Part shown: positions 1 to 17,753 of the stretch, one piece after another
How positions within the stretch are numbered: position 1 is the stretch's first letter
Layout of the letters: the number at the start of each line of letters is the position of its first letter
The notes under the pieces: model-generated
Databases searched by the model: none
Told to the model about the DNA's origin: nothing
What the model saw: the letters and a program-made list of their open reading frames with translations, nothing else
Assembly: GCA_044070495.1 (NCBI GenBank)
Contig: JBIPSI010000005.1
Location: forward strand, 32,001-96,000
DNA length: 64,000 nt
From: Spirulina sp.
Lineage (GTDB): Bacteria; Cyanobacteriota; Cyanobacteriia; Phormidesmidales; Phormidesmidaceae
Direction: 5' to 3'
Translations under genes and position numbers: made by a program

Positions 1-1
1 T

Positions 2-79
2 GCGCTTAGTGGGGAGGAGGATCTGGATCTAGGTGCCTTCGAGCCGATTGATTTTGACGATATTCGTGGAGCGTGGTGA
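2..79 (+). CDS. tnsB: C-terminal end of TnsB transposase (partial, runs in from upstream of window)
   Basis: Open frame ALSGEEDLDLGAFEPIDFDDIRGAW-stop (TGA 77-79), 2 nt before tnsC ATG; acidic/aromatic tail resembles the V-K TnsB C-terminal TnsC-binding hook; position fits. Confidence 0.75.
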   Translation, partial: ALSGEEDLDLGAFEPIDFDDIRGAW

Positions 80-81
80 GC

Positions 82-912
82 ATGACACAAGCAAAGGCCT
101 GGGCTGAGGTGCTAGGTGAGTCAACGCCGGATACGGACTCGCTACAGGCGGAAATCACCCGCCTACGGAAGAAAACCGTGTTGCCCCTAGAGCATGTCAG
201 CCAGCTTCACGGTTGGCTGGATGGGAAGCGCAAGGCGCGTCAGTCTTGCCGCATTGTGGGGGAATCGAGAACTGGAAAGTCGAGTGCCTGTGAGGCGTAC
301 TTTTACCGAAACAAGCCCACTCAAGCCACGGGCAAGAAGCCGATTGTCCCGGTCGTCTACATTCAGCCGCCACAGAAGTGCGGGTCGAGGGAACTGTTTA
401 AGGAGATCATCGAATTTCTCAAGTATCGGGTGGCTAAGGGGACGGTCTCTGATTTTCGGGGGCGGGCCTTTGAGGTGCTGAAGGGCTGCGAGGTCGAGAT
501 GATCGTCATCGACGAAGCGGATCGGCTGAAGCCCGAGACCTTTGCCGATGTGCGCGATTTTTACGACAAGCTGGCGATTTCGGTGGTCTTAGTCGGCACG
601 GATCGGCTGGATGCCGTCATCAAGCGAGATGAGCAGGTGTATAACCGCTTCCGAGCCTGCTACCGCTTTGGCAAGCTCTCCGGGGAGGACTTTATCAAAA
701 CGGTCAAGATTTGGGAGCAGAAGGTTTTGCTGCTGCCCGTGGCCTCTAACTTAACCAGCAAGGCGATGCAGAAAATTCTGATAGAGGCGACGGAGGGCTA
801 CATTGGCCGCATGGATGAGGTACTGCGGGAGGCGGCGATTCGTGCCTTGAGCCAGGGGCACAAGAAAATTGAGAAGTCGGTGCTGCAAGAGGTGGCTAGG
901 GAGTACAAATAA
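82..912 (+). CDS. tnsC: TnsC/TniB AAA+ ATPase of V-K CAST
   Basis: Walker A GESRTGKS, Walker B IVIDEADRL, typical V-K segments WLDGKRKARQSCR and LVGTDRLDAVIKRDEQVYNRF; ATG 82 preferred over GTG 73. Confidence 0.95.
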   Translation: MTQAKAWAEVLGESTPDTDSLQAEITRLRKKTVLPLEHVSQLHGWLDGKRKARQSCRIVGESRTGKSSACEAYFYRNKPTQATGKKPIVPVVYIQPPQKCGSRELFKEIIEFLKYRVAKGTVSDFRGRAFEVLKGCEVEMIVIDEADRLKPETFADVRDFYDKLAISVVLVGTDRLDAVIKRDEQVYNRFRACYRFGKLSGEDFIKTVKIWEQKVLLLPVASNLTSKAMQKILIEATEGYIGRMDEVLREAAIRALSQGHKKIEKSVLQEVAREYK

Positions 913-1415
913 TGGTGGAGTCTGGGATTCAGCCCTGGTTATTTGAGGTGGAACCTTACCCAGGCGAAAGCCTGAGCCATTACCTAGGGAGGTTTCGGCG
1001 ACGCAATCAACTGACACCGGGCGGGCTGGGAACCATGGCGGGCATTGGGGCGGTGGTGGCCCGTTGGGAAAAGTTTCACCTCAATCCCTATCCCACCCAG
1101 GCGCAGTTTGAGGCGCTGGGGAAGGTGCTAGGGCTATCGGCGGAGCGCCTTTGGGCCATGCTGCCACCTCAAGGAGAGGGGATGGTGCATGAGCCGATTC
1201 GGCTGTGTGGGGCCTGCTATGGGGAGAGTCCCTGTCATCGGATGGAGTGGCAATACAAGTCGGTTTGGAGGTGTGAGCGCCACAACCTCAAGCTACTCTC
1301 TAAGTGCCCTAACTGTGGGGCCAAGTTTAAGGCTCCAGCCCTTTGGGAGGATGGCTGCTGTAGTCGTTGCAAGATATCGTTTGCCATGACCGAAAAACTT
1401 CAAAAATCTAGCTAG
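912..1415 (+). CDS. tniQ: TniQ, short zinc-finger type
   Basis: PYPGESLSHYLGRFRR, ARWEKF, CxxC motifs (CGAC, CPNC, CSRC); TAATG overlap with tnsC. Confidence 0.95.
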   Translation: MVESGIQPWLFEVEPYPGESLSHYLGRFRRRNQLTPGGLGTMAGIGAVVARWEKFHLNPYPTQAQFEALGKVLGLSAERLWAMLPPQGEGMVHEPIRLCGACYGESPCHRMEWQYKSVWRCERHNLKLLSKCPNCGAKFKAPALWEDGCCSRCKISFAMTEKLQKSS

Positions 1416-2035
1416 GGCAAACTAATCTTACTTAACTCAAGCTTGTAAAACTCTTGCTTTTCATCTAAATCTTTATCCTGAAAGATCTCGTTGACTTCTG
1501 AGCTGGAGAGGCATTTTTTCTCGCAAATTATATCAGCAATGTGCGAGATTAAATCCCAATTTTCTTCGACGATTTTCCTCACTGGGTCAAGAAATCTATC
1601 GCTAGATCCTATAGGAAATCCTAGCTTCGTATATTTAGAAAAATCATCTCCTCCGCCTCCTACACTAAGAGAAGCAAAAGGCTCTTCAAATCCCCTGAAA
1701 ATATCCTCTGCTATGGATCCAGCAAATGCTATACAAGTGAAAATATATTTTTCCATCAAGTCTTCGATCAACTCTGGTGGAGTATAAGGAATGTAATTAG
1801 TCTCTCCTCCATTGTCTTTATCTATGGAAGCATTAATTACATCATATCCAAATAGTCGAATCATGAATATATGTCCTGCCTCATGATGGGCAGTTGCCTT
1901 TGCTTCTTCTTCCTGAGACTTGAATGGATTCATTGTGATTATTTTCTTTGTTAGATCGTCTGGAATTCCTGATAATCCATTCCGAATTGAATGCGATTTG
2001 CTTTCCTGATGAAGGGGAGTGCTGATAGAGATCAA
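1412..2035 (-). CDS. Standalone M41/FtsH-protease-like zinc metallopeptidase
   Basis: TAHHEAGH (HExxH), FAGSIAE third-ligand helix, GGDD; AT-rich; true start may be a downstream Met. Confidence 0.75.
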   Translation of the reverse strand: MISISTPLHQESKSHSIRNGLSGIPDDLTKKIITMNPFKSQEEEAKATAHHEAGHIFMIRLFGYDVINASIDKDNGGETNYIPYTPPELIEDLMEKYIFTCIAFAGSIAEDIFRGFEEPFASLSVGGGGDDFSKYTKLGFPIGSSDRFLDPVRKIVEENWDLISHIADIICEKKCLSSSEVNEIFQDKDLDEKQEFYKLELSKISLP

Positions 2036-2068
2036 TGCCTTCAGCGAAAATATGGGTCTTCACAATTA

Positions 2069-5000
2069 CTAAGGACTCGACTGAGCTTCTTCAAAAACTT
2101 TCTCGGCAAAATCTGGATCTTCCTGCATTTTCTTGAAAAGAGCGGGCATTTTGTCGTAGTGCTGTTTGAGAAACTGCTCTTCACTCTCGGGCAAACGGCC
2201 AGCTAGATAAATCAATTCTTCTTCATCGAGTTCTAAAATACGAGCAATCGCCCGAATAGCATCTTCCTTGGGCGGATAGTCGGCTTTATCGTTCTCTAGC
2301 TTTGACAGATAGGTGAAATTTAGTCCCACCGAGTCAGCTAGCTCTCGCTGGCTCAGCCCTTTTGCCTTCCTCGCCTGGAAGATTACCTGCCCAAAGGTTT
2401 CATCGGTGGTGTACGGGGCGACCGGCTCTCCAGCTCTTTGGGCACGGGGTTGGCGCTTGGTTTTGCCCTGCACCTCTACCCAGCCAATCAGTTGGGTAGA
2501 GAAAGCCCGTTCGGCTTGGGCTAGCCCCTGCTGCTTTAGCTCTCGGTTGAGCATGGGTTCCAGGTATTCGTGAAGTAGTCTTTGCCGCTCTTTGACTTCC
2601 CAGTTAGGGACGGCAGGGGCTTGCATCAAGACATCAATGCCTTTGCGTTCTAGGGTGGGTAGGCGTTTGCCGTTGGGGTTGGTTGCTAGAGATTTGAGGA
2701 CAAACTGTTGTTCCCCTCGTTGTCCCAAAACCTCTATCAACCACCAGGTCAACACCGCTGGCATTTCGTCATCGCCAATGACCGAGGCTCCCAGCTCTTC
2801 AGGCACAACGTTTTGCCACTTCTGTAGTGCCTGCTCCATCACCGGATGGTCTAGCCCCATGAGGTCGAGGGTTTCATTTTCGCAGGCCAGTTCCCGATTG
2901 GTGGTAAATCGCAGTAGCTTGGTGCCCTGGTCACCTCGGAGTTCAAACAGGCTGTCGCCAATGCGGACGACACTCTGTTTTTGATCTTCGAGGGCTGCCG
3001 ATAGGAAACGGATAATGCGATCTAGGCTAGCGCTGACATCGGCGAAGGGTTTGTAGTCATCAATGTTGAAGCCTTCCAGGTCTTGGAATAGCTCAAAGAC
3101 CACTTTGCGGGCCTCTGCTGCGTTGGAAAGGGCATTGGCTAATTCGTGCTGGGTGCGCTTCAAGGTTGGGTCAGACAGCGCCTGTTGATAGAGTTTTTCG
3201 TAGCTCAGGCGTTCGGAGAGTTGGCCGAGAATTTGAGCTTTCAGATCTTCGGCCACTTTGCCATGTTCGTCTACCTTGCCGACGGCTTTGGCAATTTCTT
3301 CTAGCTTTTCTTCCAGCAGCAGAAAGATTTTGCCCTCGATGGTGTCTGAGAGCACGAGGTTATAGACCTGGGCCGTATGGTTTTGCCCATAGCGGTGGAT
3401 GCGACCAATGCGCTGCTCGATATCCATCGGGTTCCAGGGCAGGTCGAAGTTAAACAGCACCCTAGCAAATTGCAGGTTGATGCCCTCTCGCCCTGCTGCG
3501 GTACAAATCAGCACGCGGGGGCCATTCTTTTGGCGGAATTTGCGCTCAGCGGCCAGCTTAGAGCCATGGTCGCCCCCTCGGAGCACTACTACGCCCTGGC
3601 CTGGGTAGGTGGTTTCGATTTCTGCGGCTAGCAGATCGACGGTGCCCAGGTAGGTGGCGAAGATCACGATTTTTTCGGTGGGGTTCTGCTTCCAGAGGTT
3701 GCCCAGGGCGATCATGAGTTTTTCGACCTTGGTTTCTCGGGCGACGGGGAAACTTTCTAGCAAAGCATTAATCCGATCGCGCTCTTCAGGCAGGGCAATT
3801 TTGACGAAGCTCACGGCAGCAGCTTCGGCCTGGCTGGCGTTGATTTCGCCGCTGTAGGCGTCCGAGCCGATTTCTAGTTCACCATCGTCGATCTTTTTGA
3901 GAATGGCGAGCTTAGCCTCGGCTAAGATGCGATCGCACTCGCCCTGGCCCATGGCATTCTCAGGCAGTTGGTACATCTGGCGAATGAGGTATCGAGCCTC
4001 ATCGAGCAGGCGCTCGCGGTTGTCGATGTCGAGTTCTTGGTCGCGCAGGATGGCTTCGTGGATGGTGAGCATCAGCAGCCGTCGCCGCAGGGTGAGGCGC
4101 ACCGCCGCGAAGCTAGAGGCGGCAATTTTTTGAAAAATGGCCATGATGAAGCCCAAGGCCCGTGCCTGGTTGCCCTGCTGCTTGGCTAGGTCAAAGCCAT
4201 CCTGGAGGTATTGGCAGAGCTTGGTGTAGAACTCCCGCTCTTCGTCGGCCATGGTGAAGGATTCGGTTTCCACTTGGCGGCGGGCAAACAGGGTGGAGCC
4301 GTCGGGCCTACAGGCATCGGCCTTGGTGCGGCGAAAGACAATGGTATTGAGGCGATGGCGATTTTCCACCATGTCGTCGGGGTTTTTGAACAGGGTGGAG
4401 TCGAGCAGGTTGGTCAGCATCCAGAAGCGGAAGTGATCGCCCTGGTGGGGGGTAGCGGAGAGCAAGATCAGATCGCGGGTGTGGTCTTTGAGCTTTTCGG
4501 CCAGCTTGTAGTTTTCGGTTTTGCGAACCCGGTTGCCGCTTTTGTAGGCATTGAGGTGATGGGCTTCGTCAAACACCACCAGATCCCAGGTGGGGGCATC
4601 GAGCAGCTTTTTAATGCGGCTAGTGCGTTTGAGGGTGTCGATGCTGACGATTAAATTGTCGTGTTTCTCAAAGGCGTTGGATTTACGGTCAAACACATCG
4701 CCTTCGCTGCCAAAGACTTCAAAATTGAGGTTAAAGACTTCGTTGAGTTCGCGATGCCAGTTGTTGACCAGGCCCGCTGGCACCACCATGAGGGCGCGGT
4801 TGAGTTCTGAGCGGCTGGCCAGTTCGCGCAGCAGCAGGGCGGTTTCAATGGTTTTGCCTAGGCCCACTTCGTCGGCGATTAGGTAGCGGCGGGGGCTGTT
4901 GGTGGCGATGCGGTGGGTAAGCACCACCTGGTGGGGCAGCAGGTCAATTTTGGCGGCGGTGAGGGCGGCGGCGCTTTCCATCAGGGGCAGGGCGTGGGCT

Positions 5001-5239
5001 TCGTGGACGAGCCAGAGCTGTCGCAGCCGTTCCCAGGTGCCAGAAACGTTGTGGATGATGCGCTCGTTTCTGGAGAGTTGGGGGGTGACGCTGGAGAGGG
5101 GCAGTTGCCGTTCGCCGCTGCCAAAGAAGACTCGCACGTAGCCGTTGCGGGGCGCTTCTAGCACCACCCCTTCGCCAAATTCGGCGTGGGTGATGCGCTT
5201 ACCGGGTTGGAGGCTGGCTTCGAGCAGTGGGTTATCCAT
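2069..5239 (-). CDS. SNF2-family helicase with C-terminal XRE-type HTH
   Basis: LIADEVGLGKT, FDEAHH, SATPHQG, GREGINLQ, QRIGRIHRYGQ; C-terminal FGQVIFQARKAKGLSQRELADSVGLNFTYLSKLEND. Confidence 0.92.
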   Translation of the reverse strand: MDNPLLEASLQPGKRITHAEFGEGVVLEAPRNGYVRVFFGSGERQLPLSSVTPQLSRNERIIHNVSGTWERLRQLWLVHEAHALPLMESAAALTAAKIDLLPHQVVLTHRIATNSPRRYLIADEVGLGKTIETALLLRELASRSELNRALMVVPAGLVNNWHRELNEVFNLNFEVFGSEGDVFDRKSNAFEKHDNLIVSIDTLKRTSRIKKLLDAPTWDLVVFDEAHHLNAYKSGNRVRKTENYKLAEKLKDHTRDLILLSATPHQGDHFRFWMLTNLLDSTLFKNPDDMVENRHRLNTIVFRRTKADACRPDGSTLFARRQVETESFTMADEEREFYTKLCQYLQDGFDLAKQQGNQARALGFIMAIFQKIAASSFAAVRLTLRRRLLMLTIHEAILRDQELDIDNRERLLDEARYLIRQMYQLPENAMGQGECDRILAEAKLAILKKIDDGELEIGSDAYSGEINASQAEAAAVSFVKIALPEERDRINALLESFPVARETKVEKLMIALGNLWKQNPTEKIVIFATYLGTVDLLAAEIETTYPGQGVVVLRGGDHGSKLAAERKFRQKNGPRVLICTAAGREGINLQFARVLFNFDLPWNPMDIEQRIGRIHRYGQNHTAQVYNLVLSDTIEGKIFLLLEEKLEEIAKAVGKVDEHGKVAEDLKAQILGQLSERLSYEKLYQQALSDPTLKRTQHELANALSNAAEARKVVFELFQDLEGFNIDDYKPFADVSASLDRIIRFLSAALEDQKQSVVRIGDSLFELRGDQGTKLLRFTTNRELACENETLDLMGLDHPVMEQALQKWQNVVPEELGASVIGDDEMPAVLTWWLIEVLGQRGEQQFVLKSLATNPNGKRLPTLERKGIDVLMQAPAVPNWEVKERQRLLHEYLEPMLNRELKQQGLAQAERAFSTQLIGWVEVQGKTKRQPRAQRAGEPVAPYTTDETFGQVIFQARKAKGLSQRELADSVGLNFTYLSKLENDKADYPPKEDAIRAIARILELDEEELIYLAGRLPESEEQFLKQHYDKMPALFKKMQEDPDFAEKVFEEAQSSP

Positions 5240-5297
5240 GGCGGTGGGGGAGGGAACTCCGGTGGGGGTGGGGAAATTTGAGGCAACCTGGGCCAGG

Positions 5298-5822
5298 TTA
5301 GGAAATGCGCTCTAGGTAAAGACCAATCCAATCGGGGCCTTCGAGGTCGGTGTTGGTGGGGGCATCGGCACGCAGAAGGTGGCCCGCATCGGTGGCGGCT
5401 CCGGCCCACAGGGCACGGCCCATGGCGAGGGTTTGGGCATTGTACCTGCCGCCACAGGCCCAGGTGTAGGCGTTGGTGGCGGGCTGGTGTTTGATGCGTT
5501 TTTGCCCCTGGGGGAGCCAGAAGAGCAACCCGGCTTGGCCTTCGTACTCGTCTTGGAAGCTGAGGATGGCGGGCTGGATAGTGTCTTCGAGGAATTGTTG
5601 GCCGTCGTCGGGGGAGAGGCTATCGAGGGCACCGTCTAACCCGGCGACGACGAGGGTGTTGCCATGGCTGGAGGGCAGGTCATCGGGCCAGTGCTCCTGT
5701 AGGCGCAGAAACTGTCGCAGGGAATAGACTTCGTCGGGGGCGGCGATGGTGGCCAATTTTTCGGCATTCCACAAGAGGGCCATGCCGTTTTTATGCCAGT
5801 TGGGGTTTCGCACGGGTCGCAT
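5298..5822 (-). CDS. Hypothetical 174-aa protein of the DUF499 operon
   Basis: Co-oriented, 6 nt after MTase stop; hydrophobic strand LVVAGLD may be a degenerate Walker B. Confidence 0.75.
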   Translation of the reverse strand: MRPVRNPNWHKNGMALLWNAEKLATIAAPDEVYSLRQFLRLQEHWPDDLPSSHGNTLVVAGLDGALDSLSPDDGQQFLEDTIQPAILSFQDEYEGQAGLLFWLPQGQKRIKHQPATNAYTWACGGRYNAQTLAMGRALWAGAATDAGHLLRADAPTNTDLEGPDWIGLYLERIS

Positions 5823-5828
5823 GGTGAT

Positions 5829-8800
5829 TTACTCCCCAAAGATGGACAGTTGGGTGGTGGTTTCTTGGGGATGCTTGCGCTCCCAAGTTTGCAAAATGCG
5901 GCGAGCCAAGGTGGCAGCCTGACGAATTTCGGCGGTGGCTCCCCGATCTTTGTGCCAGTCGAGCAGGGCGGCGAGGGCAGGGTGGGGTCGAAAGTTGGGG
6001 TTGTTGAGGGTGTCGTTGGCGTTGATGCCGCTGTTCTCGAAGCAGGCTCCGATGAGGATCATGGCTTGGTCGTAGTCGTTGGTGAGGCGCTGGCGGTGTT
6101 TACCATGCCAGGTTTGGGCGATTTCGAGGGGGGAGGTGAGGTAATACACTTTTTTCTGCTGCTTGCACCAGCCGCGTTCTTCAAATTCTTGGGGAGAAAT
6201 GCCCGTGCCGCGCAGGTATTTTTGCATTTGGTCGCGGGGTAGCTCGGTTTGGCGATCAAAGATTCTCAGAAATTGCCGGGTAAAGGGTTCTGCTTCGATG
6301 GGCGGCAGCACGTCGTTGGTGCTGTTTTCTTCGTCCAAAAGCTGAAAGATACCCACCAGCGCTTCTTTAACGGAAATGGGTTTGCCTTCGTCTAAATACA
6401 CTTTGCCATAGTGGCGAGAGTAATATTCTAGGGCTTTGCCTCGCTTAATGACTTGCAGATCGGCCTTGGGCAAACCTGCTTTTTCGTGCAGTTCTAAAAT
6501 GCCTTGCAGTTGGCGAACAGCGTTCAGTACCTCCCGGCGCATTTTGCCCCAGCTTACGGGTTGGGGTTCTTCCATGCGCTTGCGGCAAACGTGGACAATG
6601 TCGTATTCAATCTTTTGAGAACCAAAGGTACCCGGCTTTGAGCCTTCTCCTTTCGTTTCGTCAGAACGAATTGGGTAAGCTTGCTCTAGATAAAAGCCCG
6701 CATCAAAAAGACTTTCAAGGACATCGACCCACGGTTCATCTAAACTATGATGGAATGTAAAAGCTAGTATTCCTCCTGGCTTAAGCAATCGATTTGACTC
6801 GCTCCAGCACTGAGTTAAAAGACGCTTGTAAAAGCCATCAGGATCTTCAGGTTCCCGAGCCTTGTTTGAAAGGCATTCAAGAGCCTTTGGTGAAAATCTT
6901 GCGTCAAAATGCTCAGGATACTTTTCTTTCAGAATCAATTTAAGCCAAACATAGAAAAAGTCTGAAAGCTCTGAGTAATGAAGTAGCCCCCCAAATGGAG
7001 GATCAGTTATTACTGCATCCAAAGATTCACTGTCTCGACTTTTGATACTTGTACAAGAGGACGACTCTATCTCAAAGCTTGTTTCAACAACAGAATCAAA
7101 ACAATTAACTTTAATACTTTTCCCGCTGATTTCATCTGCAAGATAAGTTGGCAAAGATTTTTTTCCAATCAACTCCCAGGGCGAATTAAACCACGCATGG
7201 CCCTTGCGTAAGATCTCCACAGTTGAAGCCCAGGGGCCATACCCCATTGGGCTAAAAACTCCTACCTCAACAACATTAGATTTTGGATGAAAATTACTGT
7301 TTGACAATGCTGGAGCAAGTTTGTCATAGGTCATATGCCAAAAGGAAAACATGCACTGATTGCGAAGATACTGCTGAAATCCCCCTAATACGTATTCTTT
7401 GACTTTCCAAGAGTGATTATGTAAATTATCTTCGCTTATAGCTCTCAATATCTGAGCATGACCCAGTAACTGGCGGCTGTTGAACATCTTCCACCAATGG
7501 GTATACCCATGATTTGGAATCCCCCCATTATTCATGGAAGTCATAAACCCATAGGGCACCTCACTGCGAGGCCAAAAATCAGCTAAATCTTTCTCTTTGC
7601 GGGCTTCCCATTCCCGATCTGCTGCATCAAACCCAGCCGTGTTGGCTACGGGCGCAAAAAAGCGGCCCCCATAGGGCTTGTCTTCCTTCGCGCAGTCTGG
7701 GCAATAGCCCTGAATGGCATACATCGCCACCGGGCCAGTTTTGCGCGTTGCTTTTACCGTCGTCAAAATGTCCTGAGTTGTCCCACAGGCTCCACAGGCA
7801 TAGTGCGACTTCCTCGGCACCGTGCCCACATCCGTTTTTATCGTAATGCCCGTATCTGGGCAGATAACTTCCTCCGGTAATTCACCCCTCACCTCCAGCA
7901 GCTTTATCTTGCTCGCCCGTTCCCGGTTCCAAGCTGCTGTCGCCTCTGGCGTATCCGTCGCGCTGCCGCCATATTCCGTTCCATCCGGTGACATCTTCGG
8001 CGACCCTGCCAACCACTGCGGATGCACCAACAACGACAACGACACCTTCTTCTTCTGCCATCGGGGCATCACCATACCCTTCGATAGCTGCCGATGGCCA
8101 CAGTGCGGGCACGTCACCTTATTTTCCGCATCCAACACCGCATAGGGCGCTTCACCCTCCGCCACCACCAGCGACACCCCCGGTGCCATGCGGGCCTCCT
8201 GCGGTTCCTCATCAAACTTGCCGCCACACTGCTCACACTCCCGATCCAGCCATGCCTTCACCGTCAGCGTTTTCACCGCCATCACCGGGCTGCTCATAAT
8301 CGGTGTGCGGTGGCCACAGCCCGTCACCTGGCAAGGGCCATGCTTCGCCCAAAACACATAGATAATCTCCGGGCCATCGTAGCGATAATCCTTCCGTTCC
8401 TCCGGCGTCAGGCCCAGCGGGTCAAAGGTCTCATCCATCACCCGATTCGTGGAAAGCTGCGTCCACTTGCCCTTGTGCCCCCTAGGGCAATCGCAGGCAT
8501 AGAACGGCATAATCTGCGGCTTTACCTCCGCCTCAATATCCGCCAGCAGCGCCTCCACTTCTTTGATGTCTACCTGGGCCAGCTCATTCTTCACCACAAA
8601 CCAGGCCACCGGGTTTAGGTCTACCCCAAACATCTGCATCCCCAGCCGCGACCCCTCCACAACGGTGGTGCCCCCGCCCATAAAAATATCCGCCACCTTC
8701 AGATGGCTCAGCGCCCCCTTCTTCTGGTGGTTGGCGTAGTACACATCCCACACCGCCTTCGCCGCCTCCGCCGGGTCATCCGGCGCTTTCATCGCCGCCG

Positions 8801-9089: not shown

Positions 9090-10065
9090 TAAACGGCGAC
9101 GCTACCTCCAACACACTCAGCCCCCCGTGGGTGAGCGTGGGGTAGCCGCTTTGGCCCTTCCATTTGCGACGGCCCAACACATAGCGATGGCACCCCCGGC
9201 GCGAGTCCAACACCACGTCAATCGGCGGGTTCCAGTTACCGAGAGGCTCCTTGGGGTCAGCCCATCGGCCATTCTTAAATGCAGATTTGAGATAATCGGC
9301 CTGTTCCCCATCCGCATTGGCAAACAGACTGCTAGCCGCATAGCCGTGGTCAGAGGTGATCACCAACCGCCGCCCCGTCGCCAGCCGCTCCACCAAGGCC
9401 CAAAAATCATCGCTGGTGAGGTTTTTTTCTGCCTCTAGAGCTAGCTTATCTAGCCCCGACCCAGCTTTTTCACCCAGCTCATGCACCCGATTGTCGGGCC
9501 AGTGGTGCCACAGCACCCAGTGGCGCTCTGAACCGATCATCGTTGAACAATCGATCCAGGGCAAATCTAAGCTCTCGGTCACTGCCCCTGCCAGCCGGTG
9601 CGAGTGCCCCGCCTGGTTATTGGCCAGGGCCGACCGCTGGGCAAACCCTAACGCTTGGGCAAAGGGGGTGGTATCGGCGGGCAGTTCGGCCCCCGTCACC
9701 TTGGTCTGTAGAATCTGAAACCCTCGCGCTTGGGCACCCTGGAGCAACCAGGGTACCTCCCGCAGGGAAAGGCCATCTAAAATCAGCACCGCTTTGCCCC
9801 CCAGTTGGCGATTCCACCAACTCGCTAGGGCATCGGCGGTGTGCTCCACTTCGGCATCGTAGGTCTGCCACAGATCCCAGGCGGCAGAGGCGAGGAACAG
9901 GTCAACGGCCTCCAGATCGCGATCGCGCTGCACGATGGTCGGGCCAACCTTGCCGGGCGGTACTGGCGGGCTAAAGATCTGCCACGCATAGGCAAAAATC
10001 GCCGCCCACCCCGCCGAGGCCGGAGCCGTTAAGGCCTTTTGCAGAAGTTCTAGGGAAGCCGTCAT
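9070..10065 (-). CDS. Short PglZ-like alkaline-phosphatase-fold protein
   Basis: LILDGLSLRE, PADT, ITSDHGY and HGGLS..E metal-binding motifs typical of PglZ. Confidence 0.82.
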   Translation of the reverse strand: MTASLELLQKALTAPASAGWAAIFAYAWQIFSPPVPPGKVGPTIVQRDRDLEAVDLFLASAAWDLWQTYDAEVEHTADALASWWNRQLGGKAVLILDGLSLREVPWLLQGAQARGFQILQTKVTGAELPADTTPFAQALGFAQRSALANNQAGHSHRLAGAVTESLDLPWIDCSTMIGSERHWVLWHHWPDNRVHELGEKAGSGLDKLALEAEKNLTSDDFWALVERLATGRRLVITSDHGYAASSLFANADGEQADYLKSAFKNGRWADPKEPLGNWNPPIDVVLDSRRGCHRYVLGRRKWKGQSGYPTLTHGGLSVLEVASPFIEISKG

Positions 10066-12842
10066 TAGCCTTCCTCCTTATCGAGTTCGAGGCCATAGGT
10101 CAGCCCGTCGGGCAGGTTTTTCAGCAGCTTTTGCAGTTGTGCCCCGGTCAACGACTCCACGCTAAGGGTCAGGTTTTTCACCTGGGATCCGGGGTTGATG
10201 CCCCACTCGTCAGTGGCCTTGGCATAGAGGTTGAGGGCAGAGGTGGCCGGGGTGAAACGGCGAGACACCTGGGCTGGTGGCGTAGAGTCAAAGATGGATC
10301 CGCCCATTGATCCACCCGTGGTACCTACCCCTGTGCCTGGGTCGGGTTCGTGGGGTATGGGTGGTGGTGGTGTGGTGGGCGGGGGGTAGGGGGTGTCTCC
10401 GGTCGGTATCGTCGGGGGCGATCCACCAGAATCGGGCGACACAATGCTGGTACTGCTCGATCCTGTGGAGGCGGGCGGGGCAGAGGAGCCGGACGACGAC
10501 CCATCGGAGGTGGGGGCGGCCTGGGGCAGTTGCAGGTAGGTTTCTTCTAGGTGTCTGCCGCTGGGGAGCTTTGCCTTCATGCGGTGATAGGCAGCGGATT
10601 CCTCTTCTCCTGGCTTGGCCTGGATGGTTTCTCGCCCCTGGAGGTTGATGGCCAGTTTGCCCTGGGCACAGAGGCGAATTAGCTTTTCCTTCACCTGCAC
10701 TTCCCCTAGCCAAGGAATGCAGTCTCTGCCGTTCGTGCGGGGTTCTTGCAGTTCGCTCAACAGCTTGCTCACCGAGTCGCCATTGGTCGTTGCCTCCAGC
10801 ACCTGCTCCTCAAAGTCTTCAGGAATAAAGATGTCCCGACGCAGGCGTTCTTCAATAGCATCGGGAATCTTAGATCCCTTAGCCTGCAACCCTTCCACCA
10901 CAAACTGACAGCGGTTCGGTTCGCCATAGTTCCAGGTTTGCAGAATCGCAAAGCGATCAAAGCGATCCTGAAGGGCCTCCTGCAACTGTCGATGATATTT
11001 CTTTTCAAACCCCTTATATTCAGGGCTTTGCCCTTGCCATTCCTTGGCTTTGAGCACGGCCCGCGCCAAAACAATCAAGTCGCGGTCGTAGTAGGCGTTT
11101 GAGCTGCCTACTTTGGGCAGCAGAAACCGAATGGTATTGCGGCGTTTGGGCACATGCTCCTTCAGCCAAGGGCCAAGCCGTTCATTCAGCTTAGCCACCT
11201 CCTCCGGAATCACCAGGATAGGCAATCGGGCATCCCACTGGTCGGGGTGTTCAGCGGGGTCGAGTTCTCCCCACGGATTGCTAAGCCATTGGGTAGGCAG
11301 CACAATCACCCGGAAATCTCCCCGCAGATCGCCGCTGCCCGCCAGGGCGTAGCGAATCTCGTTGCGCAGGTGCAACTGATCGGAACCGTCCTCAAACAGA
11401 CGATCGTTACGGGCAAAGGCCATCAGCTTGGTCTGGGGGTTGTCCTCTACCTGGAACACCAGGCGATCGCCCAGCCGATGAATGTTGAAGCTGTTCTCGG
11501 CGATGGTCTCTAGCTCAACCTGGAAGGCGTTTTCATCAATGGCGCGATCGCGGGTGATGTCGAGCTGGAGCGTTGCTGGATCGGCCCCGGTTAGCCGACT
11601 AACAGAAAGAGAACGCACCCATAGCGCCCCCATAACTTCCGACAGATGGGGCACCTCAGCATCTGGCCGCTTCACCGCCTCGCGGACAGCGACTAGGTTG
11701 CGCTGGGCCTTATCCCTAAGACTAAGATGACGCTGCCCCACCACCGAATCGAGCAATGAAGCTACCCCACTGACCTCATCATCGACCCGAAAATCAGCGG
11801 CGGTAATCAGCGGGCGATCACTATGGCGCTTGAATAAGTCAGCCAGAATTTTGATCAGGTCGCGGGTGTCCTGAGCCTCCGTGGCCACTAATATCTGGTC
11901 TTCCAACAACTGGAGCAGATGGGGAGCAAAGGGCCAAGCCTCAATAAATTCCTGCTGTTTGCGCTCCTGTTCGGTGGGCGGCACTGCTCTAAGCCGAAAA
12001 TACTCCGCCACATGGGCCTGGGTAAGGGATTCGATGGCTGACTCAGCCACCTGCATACGGTTCTCAAACAGTCGATGCAGCAGCAGTTTCCGGCGTTCGG
12101 AAGCGGCGTTAGGCCCCTCAAAGTCAATCAGGACAGGGTTCACCCGGTGGATTTGTAGATAGGCATCGGTTCCACCATTACGGACAGAAACTACCAGGGA
12201 CAGTAGATCGGGGTACTCCTGAGCAATTTCAGAGAGCATCTGAATAAAGCTAAACGCCCAGGTACGTGCCGGTAGCCGTTTGCTGTTTGTCAGGGCGTCG
12301 TACCAGGTCTGGAACTCGTCCAGAATCAGAACAATAGGTTGCTTCTGTAAAAGTTCTATAACGAGGTCATGGGGGAGAATGTCTGTTTTTTTGTCTCCCA
12401 TGCCTTCCCACTTACCCCGAATGTAATTCCCCTCCGGGTGTTCCTCCAGAATTAAATCCCATAAGTATTTGTACCTCTGGCGGTTGAGGTTGACGCTAAT
12501 GACCTGGGTATCGGTGCGGGGCCGTAGCCCAGCGATGTAGGGGCTACCAAGCTGCGCGGCCCAGTAGTTTAGCCATGTTGCGATTGCGTCAGGGGTCTTG
12601 ATGGCATGGTAGAGAGCCGCCATCAGGTGAGATTTACCTTTGCCGCGCTCACCCATCAACACCACCGGTCGCCCTTCCCCCGGCGCGAGGGCTGCCAACG
12701 TCTTGAGCAAATCGGTAGAAGGATAGGTAATGGCAAGGAACTGCTCAGCGGGAAGCTTACTCGCCTCCACCAAGTCGATTTGCGTTCCCTTGAGTCGTTT
12801 TCCTTCAAATTCTGAACGCAGTTGTAGGCCTAGCATAGGCAC
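10065..12842 (-). CDS. DUF499-family AAA+ ATPase (BrxC-related)
   Basis: Walker A GERGKGKSH, Walker B LILDEFQ, WPFAP, Q.TRDLI; Pro/Ser/Gly linker before small C-terminal domain; TAATG coupling to next gene. Confidence 0.85.
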   Translation of the reverse strand: MPMLGLQLRSEFEGKRLKGTQIDLVEASKLPAEQFLAITYPSTDLLKTLAALAPGEGRPVVLMGERGKGKSHLMAALYHAIKTPDAIATWLNYWAAQLGSPYIAGLRPRTDTQVISVNLNRQRYKYLWDLILEEHPEGNYIRGKWEGMGDKKTDILPHDLVIELLQKQPIVLILDEFQTWYDALTNSKRLPARTWAFSFIQMLSEIAQEYPDLLSLVVSVRNGGTDAYLQIHRVNPVLIDFEGPNAASERRKLLLHRLFENRMQVAESAIESLTQAHVAEYFRLRAVPPTEQERKQQEFIEAWPFAPHLLQLLEDQILVATEAQDTRDLIKILADLFKRHSDRPLITAADFRVDDEVSGVASLLDSVVGQRHLSLRDKAQRNLVAVREAVKRPDAEVPHLSEVMGALWVRSLSVSRLTGADPATLQLDITRDRAIDENAFQVELETIAENSFNIHRLGDRLVFQVEDNPQTKLMAFARNDRLFEDGSDQLHLRNEIRYALAGSGDLRGDFRVIVLPTQWLSNPWGELDPAEHPDQWDARLPILVIPEEVAKLNERLGPWLKEHVPKRRNTIRFLLPKVGSSNAYYDRDLIVLARAVLKAKEWQGQSPEYKGFEKKYHRQLQEALQDRFDRFAILQTWNYGEPNRCQFVVEGLQAKGSKIPDAIEERLRRDIFIPEDFEEQVLEATTNGDSVSKLLSELQEPRTNGRDCIPWLGEVQVKEKLIRLCAQGKLAINLQGRETIQAKPGEEESAAYHRMKAKLPSGRHLEETYLQLPQAAPTSDGSSSGSSAPPASTGSSSTSIVSPDSGGSPPTIPTGDTPYPPPTTPPPPIPHEPDPGTGVGTTGGSMGGSIFDSTPPAQVSRRFTPATSALNLYAKATDEWGINPGSQVKNLTLSVESLTGAQLQKLLKNLPDGLTYGLELDKEEG

Positions 12843-12999
12843 GCTCTAACTAAAGTTGGCAAACGATATCCAGTAGGGGCAGGCACTCGATGGGGACAAA
12901 GGGAACCCTTGTCAGATCCACAGATAACTGAAAAGGCTCCAATTTCGACCAGACAAACCGGGTCAGGATACCCCCAGATGAATCCATAGTACCCAAGAC

Positions 13000-13076
13000 T
13001 TGAAAAAAACATCAACTCGATGTTGACGTAGAAATCAACATCGGTTAGCTTGGTGGACAGTTGACGAAAAAATCAA
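13000..13076. promoter_or_regulatory. Three TTGA-N8-TCAA palindromic operators overlapping a sigma70-like promoter
   Basis: Sites at 13000-13015, 13023-13038 and 13061-13076; -35 TTGACG 13023-13028, 17 bp spacer, -10 TAGCTT 13046-13051. Confidence 0.75.
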
Positions 13077-13092
13077 GTTTTGGAGATTACCG

Positions 13093-14487
13093 ATGTCTAC
13101 ACCACCTTCTGTTTCCCTCAAGGCTCACGCCCCTGTCGCTGTCCGGCAGGTCAGCTTGTTTGATGAGCTAAGCGATTCGGGCTTTCACCCGCTCCATGTT
13201 CCCTTAGATGTGCTGGTCAGCATTCCAGCCAGCATCCGGCAAGACGAAATCCGATTGAATGACTATCTCATCCACGGCCTAAAGCTCGGCCTAGGGGCAC
13301 TCGCTCAGGCTGCCGTAAGCCTCGACACCACCGAGTACGTAGCCACTATCCAGCGGGAGTTTGCCGCCATTCAACAGTCCTGGAGCCAGCTCCAGACTGA
13401 GAGCCGCCAAGAGCTAGAACAGCTCATTGACCAAGAGTTGACCGGTGAAAATTCGGCCCTCGCCACCGAGCTAAAGCGCTATCTTGCTGACGGGGGCACC
13501 TTCACCAAGGCACTAGAGGATATTCACCGCAAACTTGCCGATCCCAATAACTTGACCAGCATTCCTGGCCAGGTCAAAGCGCTTTTGTCGGCAGCGTTTG
13601 AGCAGGCCGATGCCCCCTTCCGCAAAGCCCTAAGTATCGCTGACCACAACTCCCCCCTAGGCCAACTGCTGGAGCACCAGCAGCGAGAGCTAGCCAACCA
13701 CAAGGCGGCGATCACTCAACTGCACACCAACCTACATCAAGAGTTTAAGGAGCAGTTCGAGCTGATCAAAAACGGCCTGAACATTCAGGCACTGCTGGAG
13801 CAGCAGCAGGCAGAGCAATCGGCCCTGCTGGAAAAGAGCATCCAAAAAGGTCGCCCGTTTGAGGTTGTGGCCGCTGAGTGCCTAGACCAGGCCAGCCGCT
13901 ACTGTAAAGATATCGTCACTCCCCTAAGTGACGAGTTGGTGGAGGGCACTGGACGCAAGGTGGGCGATGTGCTGGTGGAAATCTTCGATGAAGCCTGCGC
14001 CGATATCAAGATCGTCGTAGAAACCAAGGCGGGTCAGTACAACATCGGCGGCAAGCGGGGGCTAATCAAACAAATGCAGGAGGCGATGGAGTTTCGCAAT
14101 GCCCAGGCTGCGATCGCCGTCGTTCACCGTGATTACGCCAAGCAAAACCAAGCCGTCTACAGCGAGTTAGGTCACAACCTTGTCATGGTTGCCGTAGATC
14201 CTGACAATGAGGAGTCTGGGTTGTTGCCCCTAGAGCTGGCCTATCTCTCTACTCGCTCTAAGCTGATTGCGCTCCACCGCAAAGGCAGCTCAGAGCAGCT
14301 TGATCTCAATGCTATCCAGCAAACTATCGATCAGCTATCGGCTTGCCTCAACAGCGCCCAGGCCATGAAAGCCAACTGCACCGCCGCCAAAACCAGTGTC
14401 GATAAGGTCTACGCAGATATTCAGCAGATGGAGTCAGGGGTCAAGCAGCAACTATCGACTCTCCGCTCTCAATTGGGGCTGGCTTAG
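13093..14487 (+). CDS. Coiled-coil protein with putative PD-(D/E)xK nuclease domain (RmuC/DUF2130-like architecture)
   Basis: GGAG RBS; long Q/E/L helical region, then KGRPFE...VGDVLV...IVVETK, then C-terminal coiled coil. Confidence 0.7.
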   Translation: MSTPPSVSLKAHAPVAVRQVSLFDELSDSGFHPLHVPLDVLVSIPASIRQDEIRLNDYLIHGLKLGLGALAQAAVSLDTTEYVATIQREFAAIQQSWSQLQTESRQELEQLIDQELTGENSALATELKRYLADGGTFTKALEDIHRKLADPNNLTSIPGQVKALLSAAFEQADAPFRKALSIADHNSPLGQLLEHQQRELANHKAAITQLHTNLHQEFKEQFELIKNGLNIQALLEQQQAEQSALLEKSIQKGRPFEVVAAECLDQASRYCKDIVTPLSDELVEGTGRKVGDVLVEIFDEACADIKIVVETKAGQYNIGGKRGLIKQMQEAMEFRNAQAAIAVVHRDYAKQNQAVYSELGHNLVMVAVDPDNEESGLLPLELAYLSTRSKLIALHRKGSSEQLDLNAIQQTIDQLSACLNSAQAMKANCTAAKTSVDKVYADIQQMESGVKQQLSTLRSQLGLA

Positions 14488-14621
14488 CAGACCGTGTACT
14501 CCCATCTGGCAAGTCAGGCTTTGTGTCCGAGGGGAGACGAGCCTACCCAACATCTGATTCCCAGTGAGCTTTGATCGCCCAGAAACAAGACAGCGTCTTT
14601 ATTCTCTCACGGTTGTAATTT

Positions 14622-16505
14622 ATGGCCCAAAAAACGATTCAATGCCGCCTAGTCGCCCCTGCTGAGACTCGTCAATACCTGTGGACACTCGCCGCCGAAA
14701 AGAACACACCGCTGATTAACGCCCTCATCCAGGGCATCGTCACCCACGAGGACTTTGAAACCTGGCGAATTAAGGGCCGACATCCCGCCGATGTTGTAAC
14801 CAAGCTCTGCAAAAGCCTGAAAACAGAAGCCCCCTTCTCCGGTCAGCCCTCCCGGTTCTATGCCTCCGCCGAAAAAGCCGTCAACTACATCTTCAAGTCC
14901 TGGTTTACCCTGCAACGCCGCCTCCAACAGAAAATCTCTGGCCAACAAACCTGGCTCACCATCCTCAAAAGCGATGACGAGCTAGTGGAGCTATGTGGCC
15001 ATGCGTTAGAAGATATCCAAGATAAAGCCGCCCAGATTTTGGATGACGCTGAAACAGCGATTGAGGAGGAAGGGCATTCAGGCCAATCGAAACAAACCGC
15101 CATCAGAGCACATCTGTTCAAAAAGCACGACCAGGCCAAACAACCCCTGATTCGCTGTGCCACCGCCTATCTCCTCAAAAACGGGGGCAAAATTCCCGAC
15201 CAGCCCGAAGACCCTGAGAAATTTGCCCACCGCCGCCGCAAAGCCGAAATCCAGGTGCAGCGCCTCCAAGACCAACTCGAAGCCCGCCTTCCCAAGGGCC
15301 GAGACCTCACCGGACAAACTTGGCTTTCCACCCTGCTCACCGCCACCACCACCGTCCCCAAAGACAACCGCGAACATAAGCAGTGGCAAGACAAACTGTT
15401 GGCCCAGCCCCGCACCATCCCCTTCCCCATCCTGTTTGAAACCAACGAAGACCTCGTCTGGTCACGGAATGCCTCCGGTCGTCTCTGTGTACGATTCAAC
15501 GGCCTGAGCGAACATCGGTTTCAAATCTACTGCGACCAACGGCAACTGCCCTGGTTTCAGCGATTCCTAGACGACCAAGAAACCAAGCGGGCCAGCAAAA
15601 ACCAGCACTCCAGCGCCCTCTTTGCCCTGCGTTCTGCCCGCCTCTCCTGGCAAGAATGCGATGACCACCAAGGCCACCCCTGGGATGCCCACACCCTCAC
15701 CCTCTCCTGCACCGTCGATACCCGCCTCTGGAGCGCTGAGGGCACCGACGACGTGCGCCAGGAAAAAGCTGCCGAGGTCTCCCAGATACTCACCCGCCTC
15801 AACGAGAAAGGTGACTTATCCAAAACCCAGGCAGGCTATGCCAAACGCCTCACCTCCACCCTAGAGCGCCTCGATAGCTCCTTCCATCGCCCCAGCCGCC
15901 CCCGCGACCAAGGACAAGCCCATATCATCGCTGGCCTCAGCCTGGGCTGGGATGTCCCGCTTACCCTAGCGATTTGGAACGCTAGCACCCAGGAAATCCT
16001 GACCTATCGCAGCCTCCGCCAACTCCTGGGTCAAGACTACAGCCTCTTCCTCAAACACCGCCGAGATCAACAGCAGCAGTCCCATCGCCGCCACAAGGCC
16101 CAGCGGCAGGGCAAAGATAACCGCTTTGGCACCTCCCACCTGGGAGAACATATTGATCGCCTACTGGCCAAGGCCGTCGTCGCTGTGGCCCAACAACACG
16201 GAGCCGGGAGCATCGCCATCCCCAAGCTAGACAACATCCGCGAAACCCTTCAGGCCGAAATTCAGACCAAAGCCGAGCAAAAAGCGCCCGGTTCCATCGA
16301 AGGGCAGAAACGCTACGCCAAGCAATACAAGATCAGCATCCACAAATGGAGCTACAGCAGGCTACTCGATCAAGTGGCCAGCAAAGCCGCCCAGCAAGGA
16401 CTCGTCATCGAAACCGTCAAACAACCCTGGCGGCAAAATCCCCAGGAGCGGGCAAAAGCCGTAGCCATAGCCGCCTACGAGGCACGACAAACGATAGTAC
16501 CTTAG
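14622..16505 (+). CDS. cas12k: Cas12k (C2c5), type V-K effector with inactive RuvC
   Basis: MAQKTIQCRL, LAAEKNTPLIN, AYLLKNG, PKGRD, FQIYCDQRQLPWFQRFLDDQ, NQHSSALF, VDTRLWSAEGT, HKWSYSRL; RuvC-I lacks Asp (AGLSLG). Confidence 0.97.
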   Translation: MAQKTIQCRLVAPAETRQYLWTLAAEKNTPLINALIQGIVTHEDFETWRIKGRHPADVVTKLCKSLKTEAPFSGQPSRFYASAEKAVNYIFKSWFTLQRRLQQKISGQQTWLTILKSDDELVELCGHALEDIQDKAAQILDDAETAIEEEGHSGQSKQTAIRAHLFKKHDQAKQPLIRCATAYLLKNGGKIPDQPEDPEKFAHRRRKAEIQVQRLQDQLEARLPKGRDLTGQTWLSTLLTATTTVPKDNREHKQWQDKLLAQPRTIPFPILFETNEDLVWSRNASGRLCVRFNGLSEHRFQIYCDQRQLPWFQRFLDDQETKRASKNQHSSALFALRSARLSWQECDDHQGHPWDAHTLTLSCTVDTRLWSAEGTDDVRQEKAAEVSQILTRLNEKGDLSKTQAGYAKRLTSTLERLDSSFHRPSRPRDQGQAHIIAGLSLGWDVPLTLAIWNASTQEILTYRSLRQLLGQDYSLFLKHRRDQQQQSHRRHKAQRQGKDNRFGTSHLGEHIDRLLAKAVVAVAQQHGAGSIAIPKLDNIRETLQAEIQTKAEQKAPGSIEGQKRYAKQYKISIHKWSYSRLLDQVASKAAQQGLVIETVKQPWRQNPQERAKAVAIAAYEARQTIVP

Positions 16506-16574
16506 AACCAAAAGCCTAGGCTATAATGGGCAAACAGCTTTGAACCCGACCGCTGAACCTAGACAACCGAATGA

Positions 16575-16846
16575 TTCAATCGCGCCGCGACTCATGCGTT
16601 AGCCTCTGAGTCGTGTGAAATAAGGGTTAGTTTGGCTGTTGGAAAACAGCCGTGCTTTCTGGCCCTGGTAGCTACTCGCCCTGATGCTGTCGGACGAGAG
16701 GCTTCGGCCTCTCCGAAGAGATTAAGTCGTAGTTGACGTGCTTGTAACCTTGATTATGACGTAGGTGCGCTCCCAGCAATAAGGGTGTGGATGTACTGCT
16801 GTAGTGGCTACCGAATCACCCCCGACCAAGGGGGAACTCGCTCCAA
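16575..16846 (+). ncRNA. Type V-K tracrRNA (ends approximate)
   Basis: Conserved blocks GCGCCGC, AGGGTTAGTTTG, TGCTTTCTGGCCCTGGTAGCT, TAGGTGCGCTCCCAGCAATAAGG, GATGTACTGCTGTAGTGGCTAC, CACCCCCGACCAAGGGGGAAC; TATAAT at 16522-16527 upstream. Confidence 0.92.
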
Positions 16847-17045
16847 TACTGGGGTTGAGGGTCTTTGGAAGGATGAAATACGCCTTCTCGATCCGCGCCA
16901 AGACCGAACAACCCGTCACACGGTTATTCCAAGTCTTTGCCCAGGTCAAAAGACCCTCGACCTCACCAGTACTGCCGGGATGGATGAGGCGATCCGCGCA
17001 AATGACTTCTGAAAGCCTTGTCTTGAGAGCCTTTCAGAAGCCTGC

Positions 17046-17292
17046 GTCACAATCAACCACCCTGCACAGGGGAGGTTGAAAGGGCGCAGCCCATGGGAAG
17101 GCGTGCTTGCTTTCAGGTCACAATCAACCACCCTGCACAGGGGAGGTTGAAAGAAGGTAGGCACCTAGCTCCCAGGAGGTCAACGAACGTCACAATCAAC
17201 CACCCTGCACAGGGGAGGTTGAAAGCACTATACGGAGTGGACAAGAGATCAGCGGGTTGGTCACAATCAACCACCCTGCACAGGGGAGGTTG
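17046..17292 (+). CRISPR. V-K CRISPR array: 3 full 37-nt repeats plus 1 truncated repeat; spacers of 34, 35 and 34 nt
   Basis: GTCACAATCAACCACCCTGCACAGGGGAGGTTGAAAG at 17046, 17117 and 17189; fourth copy 17260-17292 lacks terminal AAAG. Confidence 0.97.
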
Positions 17293-17376
17293 GTGGGAAT
17301 TATCTGTGTATGATGGCCAAATGACATAATTAGGGACTTTGGCTAGTGCTGAAGACCTCAGAAGACAGAATAAACC

Positions 17377-17407
17377 AGCGAGTTGAAAGGTAAAACCTTA
17401 GCCTTCC
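17377..17407 (+). CRISPR. Delocalised homing mini-crRNA (partial repeat plus short spacer against tRNA-Gly)
   Basis: AGCGAGTTGAAAG followed by GTAAAACCTTAGCCTTCC, 18/18 match to the minus strand of 17576-17593 with GTG PAM. Confidence 0.95.
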
Positions 17408-17422
17408 TGTATTCCACTTAAG

Positions 17423-17533
17423 CGACAACAATTTGTCACCAGTATTTTGACGACAAGATTTTGTCCCGACGACAGTAATATGACCTTGACGACATCAATC
17501 TGTCACCGATGACAAATAACGTGTCACTGTACA
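17423..17533 (-). repeat. CRISPR-proximal transposon end (left end in ShCAST nomenclature) with about 5 TnsB-binding sites
   Basis: GACA...TGTCAC-like units at about 17423, 17451, 17470, 17490 and 17510; minus strand starts TGTACAGTGACAC. Confidence 0.92.
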
Positions 17534-17539
17534 GATTTA

Positions 17540-17610
17540 AGCGGGTGGGGGGAATCGAACCCCCATCATTAGCTTGGAAGGCTAAGGTTTTACCACTAAA
17601 CTACACCCGC
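17540..17610 (-). tRNA. tRNA-Gly (anticodon TCC), CAST attachment site
   Basis: Acceptor stem GCGGGTG/CACCCGC, D arm GTTTAGTGGTAAAAC, anticodon arm TTAGC-CTTCCAA-GCTAA, T loop GGTTCGATTCC; CCA not encoded. Confidence 0.97.
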
Positions 17611-17753
17611 AAGGTGGATGGCGCTCTATTTATCTAGAACTAGTTATTTAGAGCCAGTATGGCCTGAAGCCTAGTTTAGCATAGGTTGGGATCGAAGCTG
17701 TGGCCACGATTGGGAGCGCTAAGCAGGCCTGAGCAACGGGATTGAGCAACGGG

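Follow-up and report, generated by a model that had tools for sequence, protein, structure and literature searches.

The DNA analyzed here, a 64,000-nucleotide stretch of a Spirulina sp. genome (hereafter the window; contig C5, positions 32001-96000, in a 5.3-Mb genome of 74 contigs), begins inside a type V-K CRISPR (clustered regularly interspaced short palindromic repeat)-associated transposon (CAST). The element spans 19,528 bp (C5:30006-49533) and ends at window position 17533. Its parts are arranged in the order right end (RE), tnsB, tnsC, tniQ, cargo (an Hma defence system and ORFs [open reading frames] of no assigned family), cas12k, trans-activating CRISPR RNA (tracrRNA), CRISPR array, anchor CRISPR RNA (crRNA) and left end (LE), and it is placed between tRNA-Gly(TCC) and the terminator hairpin of the same tRNA. 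Sequence comparison makes it very probable that this region is a complete, single-copy 19.5-kb type V-K CAST residing at tRNA-Gly(TCC). The parts list and its completeness, the match of guide to target and the geometry of insertion are all observed directly, and we infer that the element is still mobile and probably transposition-competent.

Machinery, guide and target

A preliminary description, made from sequence alone, had claimed an intact V-K CAST at its own programmed tRNA-Gly site, with tnsC, tniQ, cas12k, tracrRNA, array and one transposon end free of lesions. Every one of these items was located in the sequence, and the sequence upstream of the window, to which that description had pointed for an intact tnsB and a second end starting with TGT, contains both. 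The claim of an intact element at its programmed site is thereby supported. No stop codons or frameshifts interrupt the element genes in the ORF listing, and nothing looked broken among the ORFs, tracrRNA, repeats, anchor guide and ends that we checked. The tracrRNA, repeats and anchor guide are also unblemished relative to the clade consensus.

Each of the four proteins was aligned with its counterpart in the Scytonema hofmanni system, ShCAST. TnsB, which contains rve and Mu-transpos_C (Pfam) and helix-turn-helix (HTH) domains, aligns over residues 9-572 with ShTnsB 13-576 of 584 (E 2.6e-259). It carries identical D, D and E residues at ShTnsB positions 205, 287 and 321, which we take to be the catalytic triad. 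For tnsC, the ATG at position 82 is aligned with Met1 of ShTnsC; residues 4-279 match ShTnsC 1-276 of 276 (E 2.2e-125), and the GESRTGK and IDEAD motifs are retained. TniQ residues 5-165 align with ShTniQ 6-166 of 167 (E 4.4e-81), with Cys/His clusters retained. Cas12k, present in a single copy in the genome, aligns over residues 1-624 with positions 1-636 of 639 of ShCas12k from the PDB (E 1.4e-216) and has a PADLOC match at 9e-262. The Pfam scan returned no TnsA family match among the 14 element ORFs, although no dedicated TnsA profile search was made.

cas12k and the transposition genes are enclosed by one pair of inverted ends. The terminal inverted repeats of RE and LE, which close the element as TGT...ACA, are identical at 23 of 23 nucleotides, and RE starts 322 bp before the start of tnsB. 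Searching with the TnsB-site-like motif G[AT]CA-N6-7-[TG]GTC, we found six repeats at C5:30014-30301 and five at window 17424-17525 (within 110 bp), compared to a genome-wide frequency of 0.15 per kb.

The guide lies between the array and LE. Downstream of the array, a truncated repeat is followed by an 18-nt spacer that matches the reverse complement of 17576-17593, inside tRNA-Gly(TCC), at 18 of 18 positions. The match stops there, as the following spacer bases differ from the tRNA. This 18-mer occurs twice in the 5.3-Mb genome, as the spacer itself and as the tRNA protospacer. A GTG protospacer-adjacent motif (PAM) is present at 17594-17596 on the protospacer (minus) strand, and the distance from PAM to the last transposon base, 17533, is exactly 60 nt (17534-17593). 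Both the complete match with its GTG PAM and the 60-bp distance had been proposed in the preliminary description, and both figures are correct. The tRNA is the single RNA gene detected by ARAGORN and Rfam in the whole window.

The same arrangement recurs in relatives. A truncated repeat, a spacer matching the adjacent tRNA and a GTN PAM were found at seven of nine loci (the window and six of eight relatives), with different tRNAs serving as targets. In six of the seven, the window included, PAM and end are 59-62 nt apart; in the remaining one the distance is 170 nt. Since the pattern recurs at seven of nine loci, the guide-tRNA match is not due to chance. We also considered a Tn7-like transposon that merely happens to lie beside a tRNA and a decayed CRISPR locus, with no CRISPR guidance. 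The uniqueness of the match in 5.3 Mb, the canonical distance and PAM, the recurrence of the pattern with other tRNAs in six of eight relatives, and the single pair of inverted ends around Cas12k and the transposition genes refute this reading; we found nothing in its favor and regard it as almost certainly wrong.

Taking the homing mechanism from the well-studied ShCAST homologues, we infer how the element would reach its site. Cas12k, with tracrRNA and the short anchor crRNA, would bind the 18-nt tRNA protospacer beside the GTG PAM. TniQ and a TnsC filament would then mark the DNA downstream of the protospacer, and TnsB, bound to the repeated sites of both ends, would insert the element with its CRISPR-side end closest to the target, ~60 nt away from the PAM. 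Insertions elsewhere would be guided by the three array spacers.

The RNA components are also well conserved. Across window and six relatives, whose Cas12k proteins are 77-96% identical, the stretch between cas12k and the array has 81% mean column identity and is almost invariant over ~16560-16850. A conserved TAnAAT box (16523-16528) precedes it; this box was not detected in the promoter scan. Position 16844 is the last base of the anti-repeat, ...GGGGGAACTCGCTCC. No Rfam family matches the tracrRNA, the sole Rfam match in the window being the tRNA. The predicted tracrRNA is of a long form, with ~90 nt between the conserved blocks CCCTGGTAGCT and GGTGCGCTCCCAGCAA (16663-16780), and the extra segment folds into two hairpins. 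Among 15 more distant loci (L117-L131), 11 were measurable: four have the long form, six a short form of 35-45 nt and one a spacing of 202 nt. A 12-nt segment at 16703-16714 is complementary to the repeat 3′ end when G-U pairs are included. We rejected it as a second anti-repeat, since it forms the 3′ side of an internal hairpin in which one relative shows a compensatory change (judged by eye).

The array faces LE. Three of its four repeats are full and end in GGTTGAAAG, while the fourth has a degenerate 3′ end. The repeats end as in the V-K consensus, ...GTTGAAAG, given in PMC12416283. The same source also defines a V-K_V2 subgroup by the anti-repeat AACUACCACCCCC and the repeat end GGTGGTGGGTTGAAAG. 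Neither is present here, where the repeat end is GGGGAGGTTGAAAG and the anti-repeat region is GGGGGAACTCGCTCC, and V2 was ruled out. These features assign the predicted tracrRNA to V1, not V2; within the ordinary type it is a long variant. The array spacers had no other match in their own genome or in plasmid and phage collections, and in the 52 other genomes of the genus the only matches were to the repeats of the array, none to its spacers.

Table 1. Coordinates of the element, its cargo and its target (window positions unless prefixed C5; aa, amino acids)
Feature	Position	Strand	Details
tnsB-side end (RE)	starts C5:30006, 1,995 bp upstream of window base 1		begins TGTACAGTGACACG / TGTACAGTGACACGTTATTTGTC
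tnsB	C5:30328-32079; 3′ end = window 1-79	+	583 aa; start 1,672 bp upstream of window
tnsC	82-912	+	AAA+ regulator; ORF opens with GTG at 73; Pfam TniB 1.3e-33
tniQ	912-1415	+	167 aa; Pfam TniQ 2.2e-11
Cargo ORF	1412-2035	-	207 aa; no family
Hma-type defence cargo	2069-12842	-	PADLOC
HmaA	2069-5239	-	SNF2 helicase with C-terminal HTH; PADLOC 1.2e-97; Pfam domains
HmaB	5829-9089	-	DUF1156 methyltransferase; PADLOC 7.9e-31; Pfam domains
HmaC	10065-12842	-	DUF499/AAA ATPase; PADLOC 3.9e-8; Pfam domains
Two ORFs between Hma genes	5298-5822, 9070-10065	-	no family
Cargo ORF	13093-14487	+	464 aa; no family; just upstream of cas12k
cas12k	14622-16505	+	627 aa, uninterrupted; NCBIfam NF038191 (V_Cas12k) 870.9 bits, cutoff 150
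Predicted tracrRNA region	16536-16850	+	ends approximate; conserved alignment with 6 relatives
CRISPR array	17046-17296	+	four 37-nt repeats, starting at 17046, 17117, 17189, 17260
Three spacers	17083-17116, 17154-17188, 17226-17259	+
Delocalised homing (anchor) crRNA	17377-17407	+	truncated repeat AGCGAGTTGAAAG 17377-17389; 18-nt spacer 17390-17407
CRISPR-side end (LE)	17424-17533	+	five TnsB-site-like repeats; terminal ...GTCACTGTACA
Flank GATTTA	17534-17539	.	six nt between LE and tRNA; GATTT at 17534-17538, not duplicated at RE
tRNA-Gly(TCC), target	17540-17610	-	ARAGORN; Rfam tRNA 76 bits

Junctions and the target-site duplication

A 5-bp target-site duplication is the expected signature of this (DDE) family of transposases, ShCAST included, and the preliminary description had predicted that GATTT, next to LE, would recur immediately before the opposite end. 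This prediction failed. The 5 bp preceding RE are TTTGC, GATTT lies 2 bp further out, and the pattern GATTTTGT (GATTT followed directly by TGT) does not occur anywhere in the 12 kb that precede the window.

To define the junctions, we compared them with unoccupied sites. A search of 40 relatives with the left flank identified four genomes in which this flank abuts tRNA-Gly(TCC), that is, empty sites, and the tRNA 3′ flank was then taken from 20 more genomes of the genus. Eleven of the resulting 24 tRNA-Gly(TCC) sites are empty and have the terminator hairpin, in nine the tRNA is followed after 6-8 nt by a CAST-type end, one has a degenerate end and three have unrelated flanks. Empty sites read hairpin (e.g., cccctgaaag...caggggtttttgc), ~6 nt, tRNA; the window locus reads ...aaaatccctgaaaccgttgattctaaagggatttgc, CAST, gattta, tRNA. 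These empty sites fix both element boundaries to the base. The GATTT near RE is the 3′ arm of a stem, aaatccct/agggattt, that corresponds to the terminator hairpin downstream of tRNA-Gly at the 11 unoccupied sites. Because it pairs with aaatc in this stem, the GATTT is ancestral. In the closest empty site (genome G057), 11 nt separate "aaaggga" from the tRNA; in the window the two flanks contribute 5 and 6 nt, also 11. As the joined flanks equal the empty site in length, there is no net target-site duplication.

The simplest account, and the one we favor, is that homing took place twice, with insertion 60 nt from the PAM in one event and 65 nt in the other (a 5-bp offset), and that recombination merged the copies. 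The events could have occurred in tandem or in different lineages; after recombination, one would have supplied the left junction and the other the right. Such a history reproduces the observed junction sequence exactly, and remnants consistent with repeated insertion at the same tRNA exist at another locus of the genus (L009/L111, described below). More broadly, junctions without a duplication may be traces left when elements at an occupied tRNA site turn over through re-homing and recombination, a proposal we make tentatively. If it is correct and general, V-K CASTs at tRNA hot spots are replaced or reshuffled in spite of target immunity, and natural copies without duplications should not be dismissed as never having transposed.

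Several observations weigh against our view of the locus as an active element with junctions merged by recombination. The 5-bp duplication is absent by comparison with the 11 empty sites in the genus, and Hsieh & Peters (PMC9881144) call target-site duplication "characteristic" of integration by transposition. In a test for chimerism, TnsB and Cas12k shared the same closest relative, G005 (93% and 94-96% identity), and recombination with a divergent element was not seen; the test is blind to recombination between near-identical copies. Finally, there is no opposite-strand ORF of at least 35 aa at 12700-14700 that would fit a CvkR (MerR), Arc_1, Arc_2 or HTH regulator beside cas12k. The missing duplication leaves the family assignment of the machinery unaffected and lowers only the claim of a single clean insertion. 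The missing regulator is not unusual, since such regulators, located upstream of cas12k in reverse orientation, are reported for 86 of 118 systems (53 CvkR, 22 Arc_1 and 11 Arc_2) in PMC9938897.

The cause of the missing duplication could also be trivial: one copy of the duplicate was deleted, the ancestral site was 5 bp shorter, or GATTT is a true copy displaced by a 2-bp insertion. GATTT does lie within 2 bp of the expected place, and the sequence from terminator to tRNA varies among relatives. However, the GC between GATTT and the end is kept after the T-run in three of the first four empty sites, the pairing with aaatc marks GATTT as ancestral, and the stem-to-tRNA spacing is the same 11 nt as in the closest empty site. 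It would take a coincidence for exactly 5 bp to be deleted, or for a 2-bp insertion to restore a conserved GC, and we consider a trivial cause rather unlikely. It is also conceivable that the element looks complete but no longer moves, being a resident island with remodelled junctions whose ORFs are kept for other reasons or have not yet decayed. The absent duplication, the abundance in the genus of decayed copies and solo ends at this tRNA, the interruption of cas12k by a frame-breaking insert in the closest relative and the lack of detectable spacer targets in the collections searched would all fit such an island. Yet the four genes are uninterrupted and highly similar to those encoding the active ShCAST proteins, the 23-nt terminal repeats are identical, the tracrRNA, repeats and guide show no decay, and loss of the duplication would not by itself disable the element. 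An immobile island is therefore improbable in our judgment, and a transposition-competent element with junctions merged by recombination remains our preferred reading.

The only other complete element in the genus, in G016 (35.6 kb, at tRNA-His), has flanks CTAAA/TAAAA, which overlap by 4 bases instead of forming a clean 5-bp repeat; in most assemblies the two ends are on separate contigs. An empty site for the G016 element was not found in the 52 other genomes of the genus.

Cargo, regulators and flanking genes

Between tniQ and cas12k, a block of minus-strand cargo genes (1412-12842) is followed by one plus-strand ORF. Defence systems are typical CAST cargo, and most of the block is an Hma-type system. 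Four cargo ORFs have no family assignment. One of these, the 207-aa ORF next to tniQ, had no above-threshold match in Pfam, PADLOC or NCBIfam.

The 464-aa ORF fills the position at which many V-K CASTs have a small repressor gene. It had no Pfam or PADLOC match, and no homologue was found within 6 kb upstream of cas12k in ten related loci. The Atlas gave leads only, with DUF2130 in 13% and Mrr_cat in 12% of the members of neighboring, unnamed clusters. Its N-terminal part is long and helical, and a D...E-x-K-like motif is visible by eye in the C-terminal part; it is possibly a nuclease-type defence gene. With no known repressor gene, the element could be a naturally de-repressed variant.

In five of the ten related loci (L008, L009, L010, L011 and L012), a 70-aa gene with a Cro/C1-type HTH domain (Pfam HTH_26, 2.3e-14; L008:5667-5879, plus strand) lies ~120 bp upstream of cas12k on the same strand, unlike the published V-K regulators CvkR, Arc_1 and Arc_2, which are on the opposite strand. 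This gene may represent a further type of V-K regulator. It is absent from the window element, and the source genome contains no homologue beyond E 0.02.

Insertion has put 19.5 kb between tRNA-Gly (flank at window 17534-17539) and its hairpin terminator (L002:9972-10005). Transcripts of the tRNA may thus extend into the transposon end and run antisense to the anchor crRNA and array. Abutting the insertion site in the left flank is a 150-aa ORF with only an integrase Arm DNA-binding domain (L002:9419-9871, minus strand), homologues of which adjoin tRNA-Gly or tRNA-Thr in relatives. Further left (L002:2285-9342) are genes for an NB-ARC/TPR protein, two nucleotidyltransferases (one followed by a HEPN gene) and a kinase-WD40 protein. 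Given this gene content, the tRNA borders an island-like region. On the other side, the interval between tRNA-Gly and hpf (17870-18508), at 17611-17868, had no match in the 52 other genomes of the genus. Synteny breaks beyond the tRNA too, as the tRNA and hpf are at different places in those genomes.

Relatives and comparison with known systems

Elements of this family are widespread. Counting the source genome, Cas12k homologues (E <= 1e-50) occur in 21 of 53 genomes of the genus, TnsB homologues in 17, the end motif in 24 and the repeat family in 18. Across the class, 48 of 301 genomes drawn had Cas12k (E <= 1e-30). The related loci come from Nodosilinea, Phormidium and Leptolyngbya strains.

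The closest relative is the CAST of Phormidium sp. FACHB-1136 (locus L006, genome G005), whose Cas12k is 94-96% and TnsB 93% identical to those of the window element, and whose tracrRNA, repeats and ends are near-identical. It resides at tRNA-Gly(CCC), which its own anchor spacer matches, whereas the window element resides at tRNA-Gly(TCC). This near-identical pair, with anchors to two glycine tRNAs, illustrates retargeting by a small change of guide. The two also differ in that the Phormidium cas12k is split by a frame-breaking insert of ~104 nt (L006:7170-7275) and that its array has at least 29 repeats (L006:8535-10881), compared to four. The preliminary description had called the window element a new ortholog. 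This holds only in a narrow sense, as the proteins of the closest relative are 93-96% identical and the family is widespread in the genus.

Other loci contain partial or rearranged copies. At L009:8799-9128 (= L111), a degenerate CAST end lies directly beside tRNA-Gly(TCC), and a second, better-preserved end with an anchor crRNA lies ~130 bp further in, at a PAM-to-end distance of 170 nt. The pair looks like the residue of insertions that followed one another at a single tRNA. At L025/L033 (G044 = G051, contig C19:4213-4270), two CAST ends are back to back, 12 bp apart, and one is part of a ~50-bp mini-element consisting only of two inverted termini. At L013:4480-5250, a truncated cas12k (first 113 residues) and a glycine-tRNA-like anchor spacer with one mismatch adjoin tRNA-Val(TAC); judged from these features, this is a decayed copy that is either away from its programmed site or behind another insertion.

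The element is a further complete V-K CAST, and its proteins closely resemble those of the best-studied system. It could be tested as a tool for inserting DNA into genomes, and it bears out the way in which V-K CASTs home to tRNA genes. It contributes little new biology: apart from the missing 5-bp duplication it looks ordinary, more than 100 cyanobacterial systems with this architecture have been described, and the family is present in ~40% of the genus genomes sampled. Its value lies in a natural insertion defined to the base, set against empty sites and without the expected duplication, in being a copy without any known repressor gene, and in forming, with its closest relative, the pair anchored to two glycine tRNAs.

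ShCAST (PDB 7n3o, 7svw, 7m99, 7n6i, 8ea3 and others) has the same four proteins, with near full-length alignments and similar lengths (window/ShCAST: TnsB 583/584, TnsC 276/276, TniQ 167/167 and Cas12k 627/639 aa). Both systems lack tnsA and use a GTN PAM, and the ends of ShCAST presumably begin TGTACAGTGAC..., like those of the window element. An insertion distance of 60-66 bp is reported for ShCAST, a range that includes the 60 nt found here. The two systems differ in their RNAs. The ShCAST tracrRNA is of the short form, with 35-45 nt between the conserved blocks, whereas that of the window element is long (~90 nt), and the repeat 3′ end and anti-repeat also differ, being GGGGAGGTTGAAAG with AACTCGCTCC in the window element. 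Compared to ShCAST, the window element also carries other cargo, the Hma system, and is a natural copy without a 5-bp duplication.

A catalogue of 118 cyanobacterial V-K CASTs (Ziemann et al., 2023; PMC9938897) describes a tRNA that is directed at the element and has LE on its downstream side, an array that faces LE, and tnsB-tnsC-tniQ located at RE. In these systems, a truncated repeat of ~12 nt also precedes an anchor spacer of ~17 nt, and the PAM, GTN, is 46-82 nt from LE. Because the CRISPR-side end adjoins the tRNA in these systems as in the window, an abnormal orientation of the element was rejected. Compared with AnCAST and the 118-128 V-K CASTs catalogued in PMC9938897 and PMC12416283, the window element agrees on every structural point. 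It differs in having a same-strand 464-aa ORF where most of the catalogued systems (86 of 118) have a reverse-strand CvkR or Arc gene, and in an anchor match of 18 nt instead of the usual 17.

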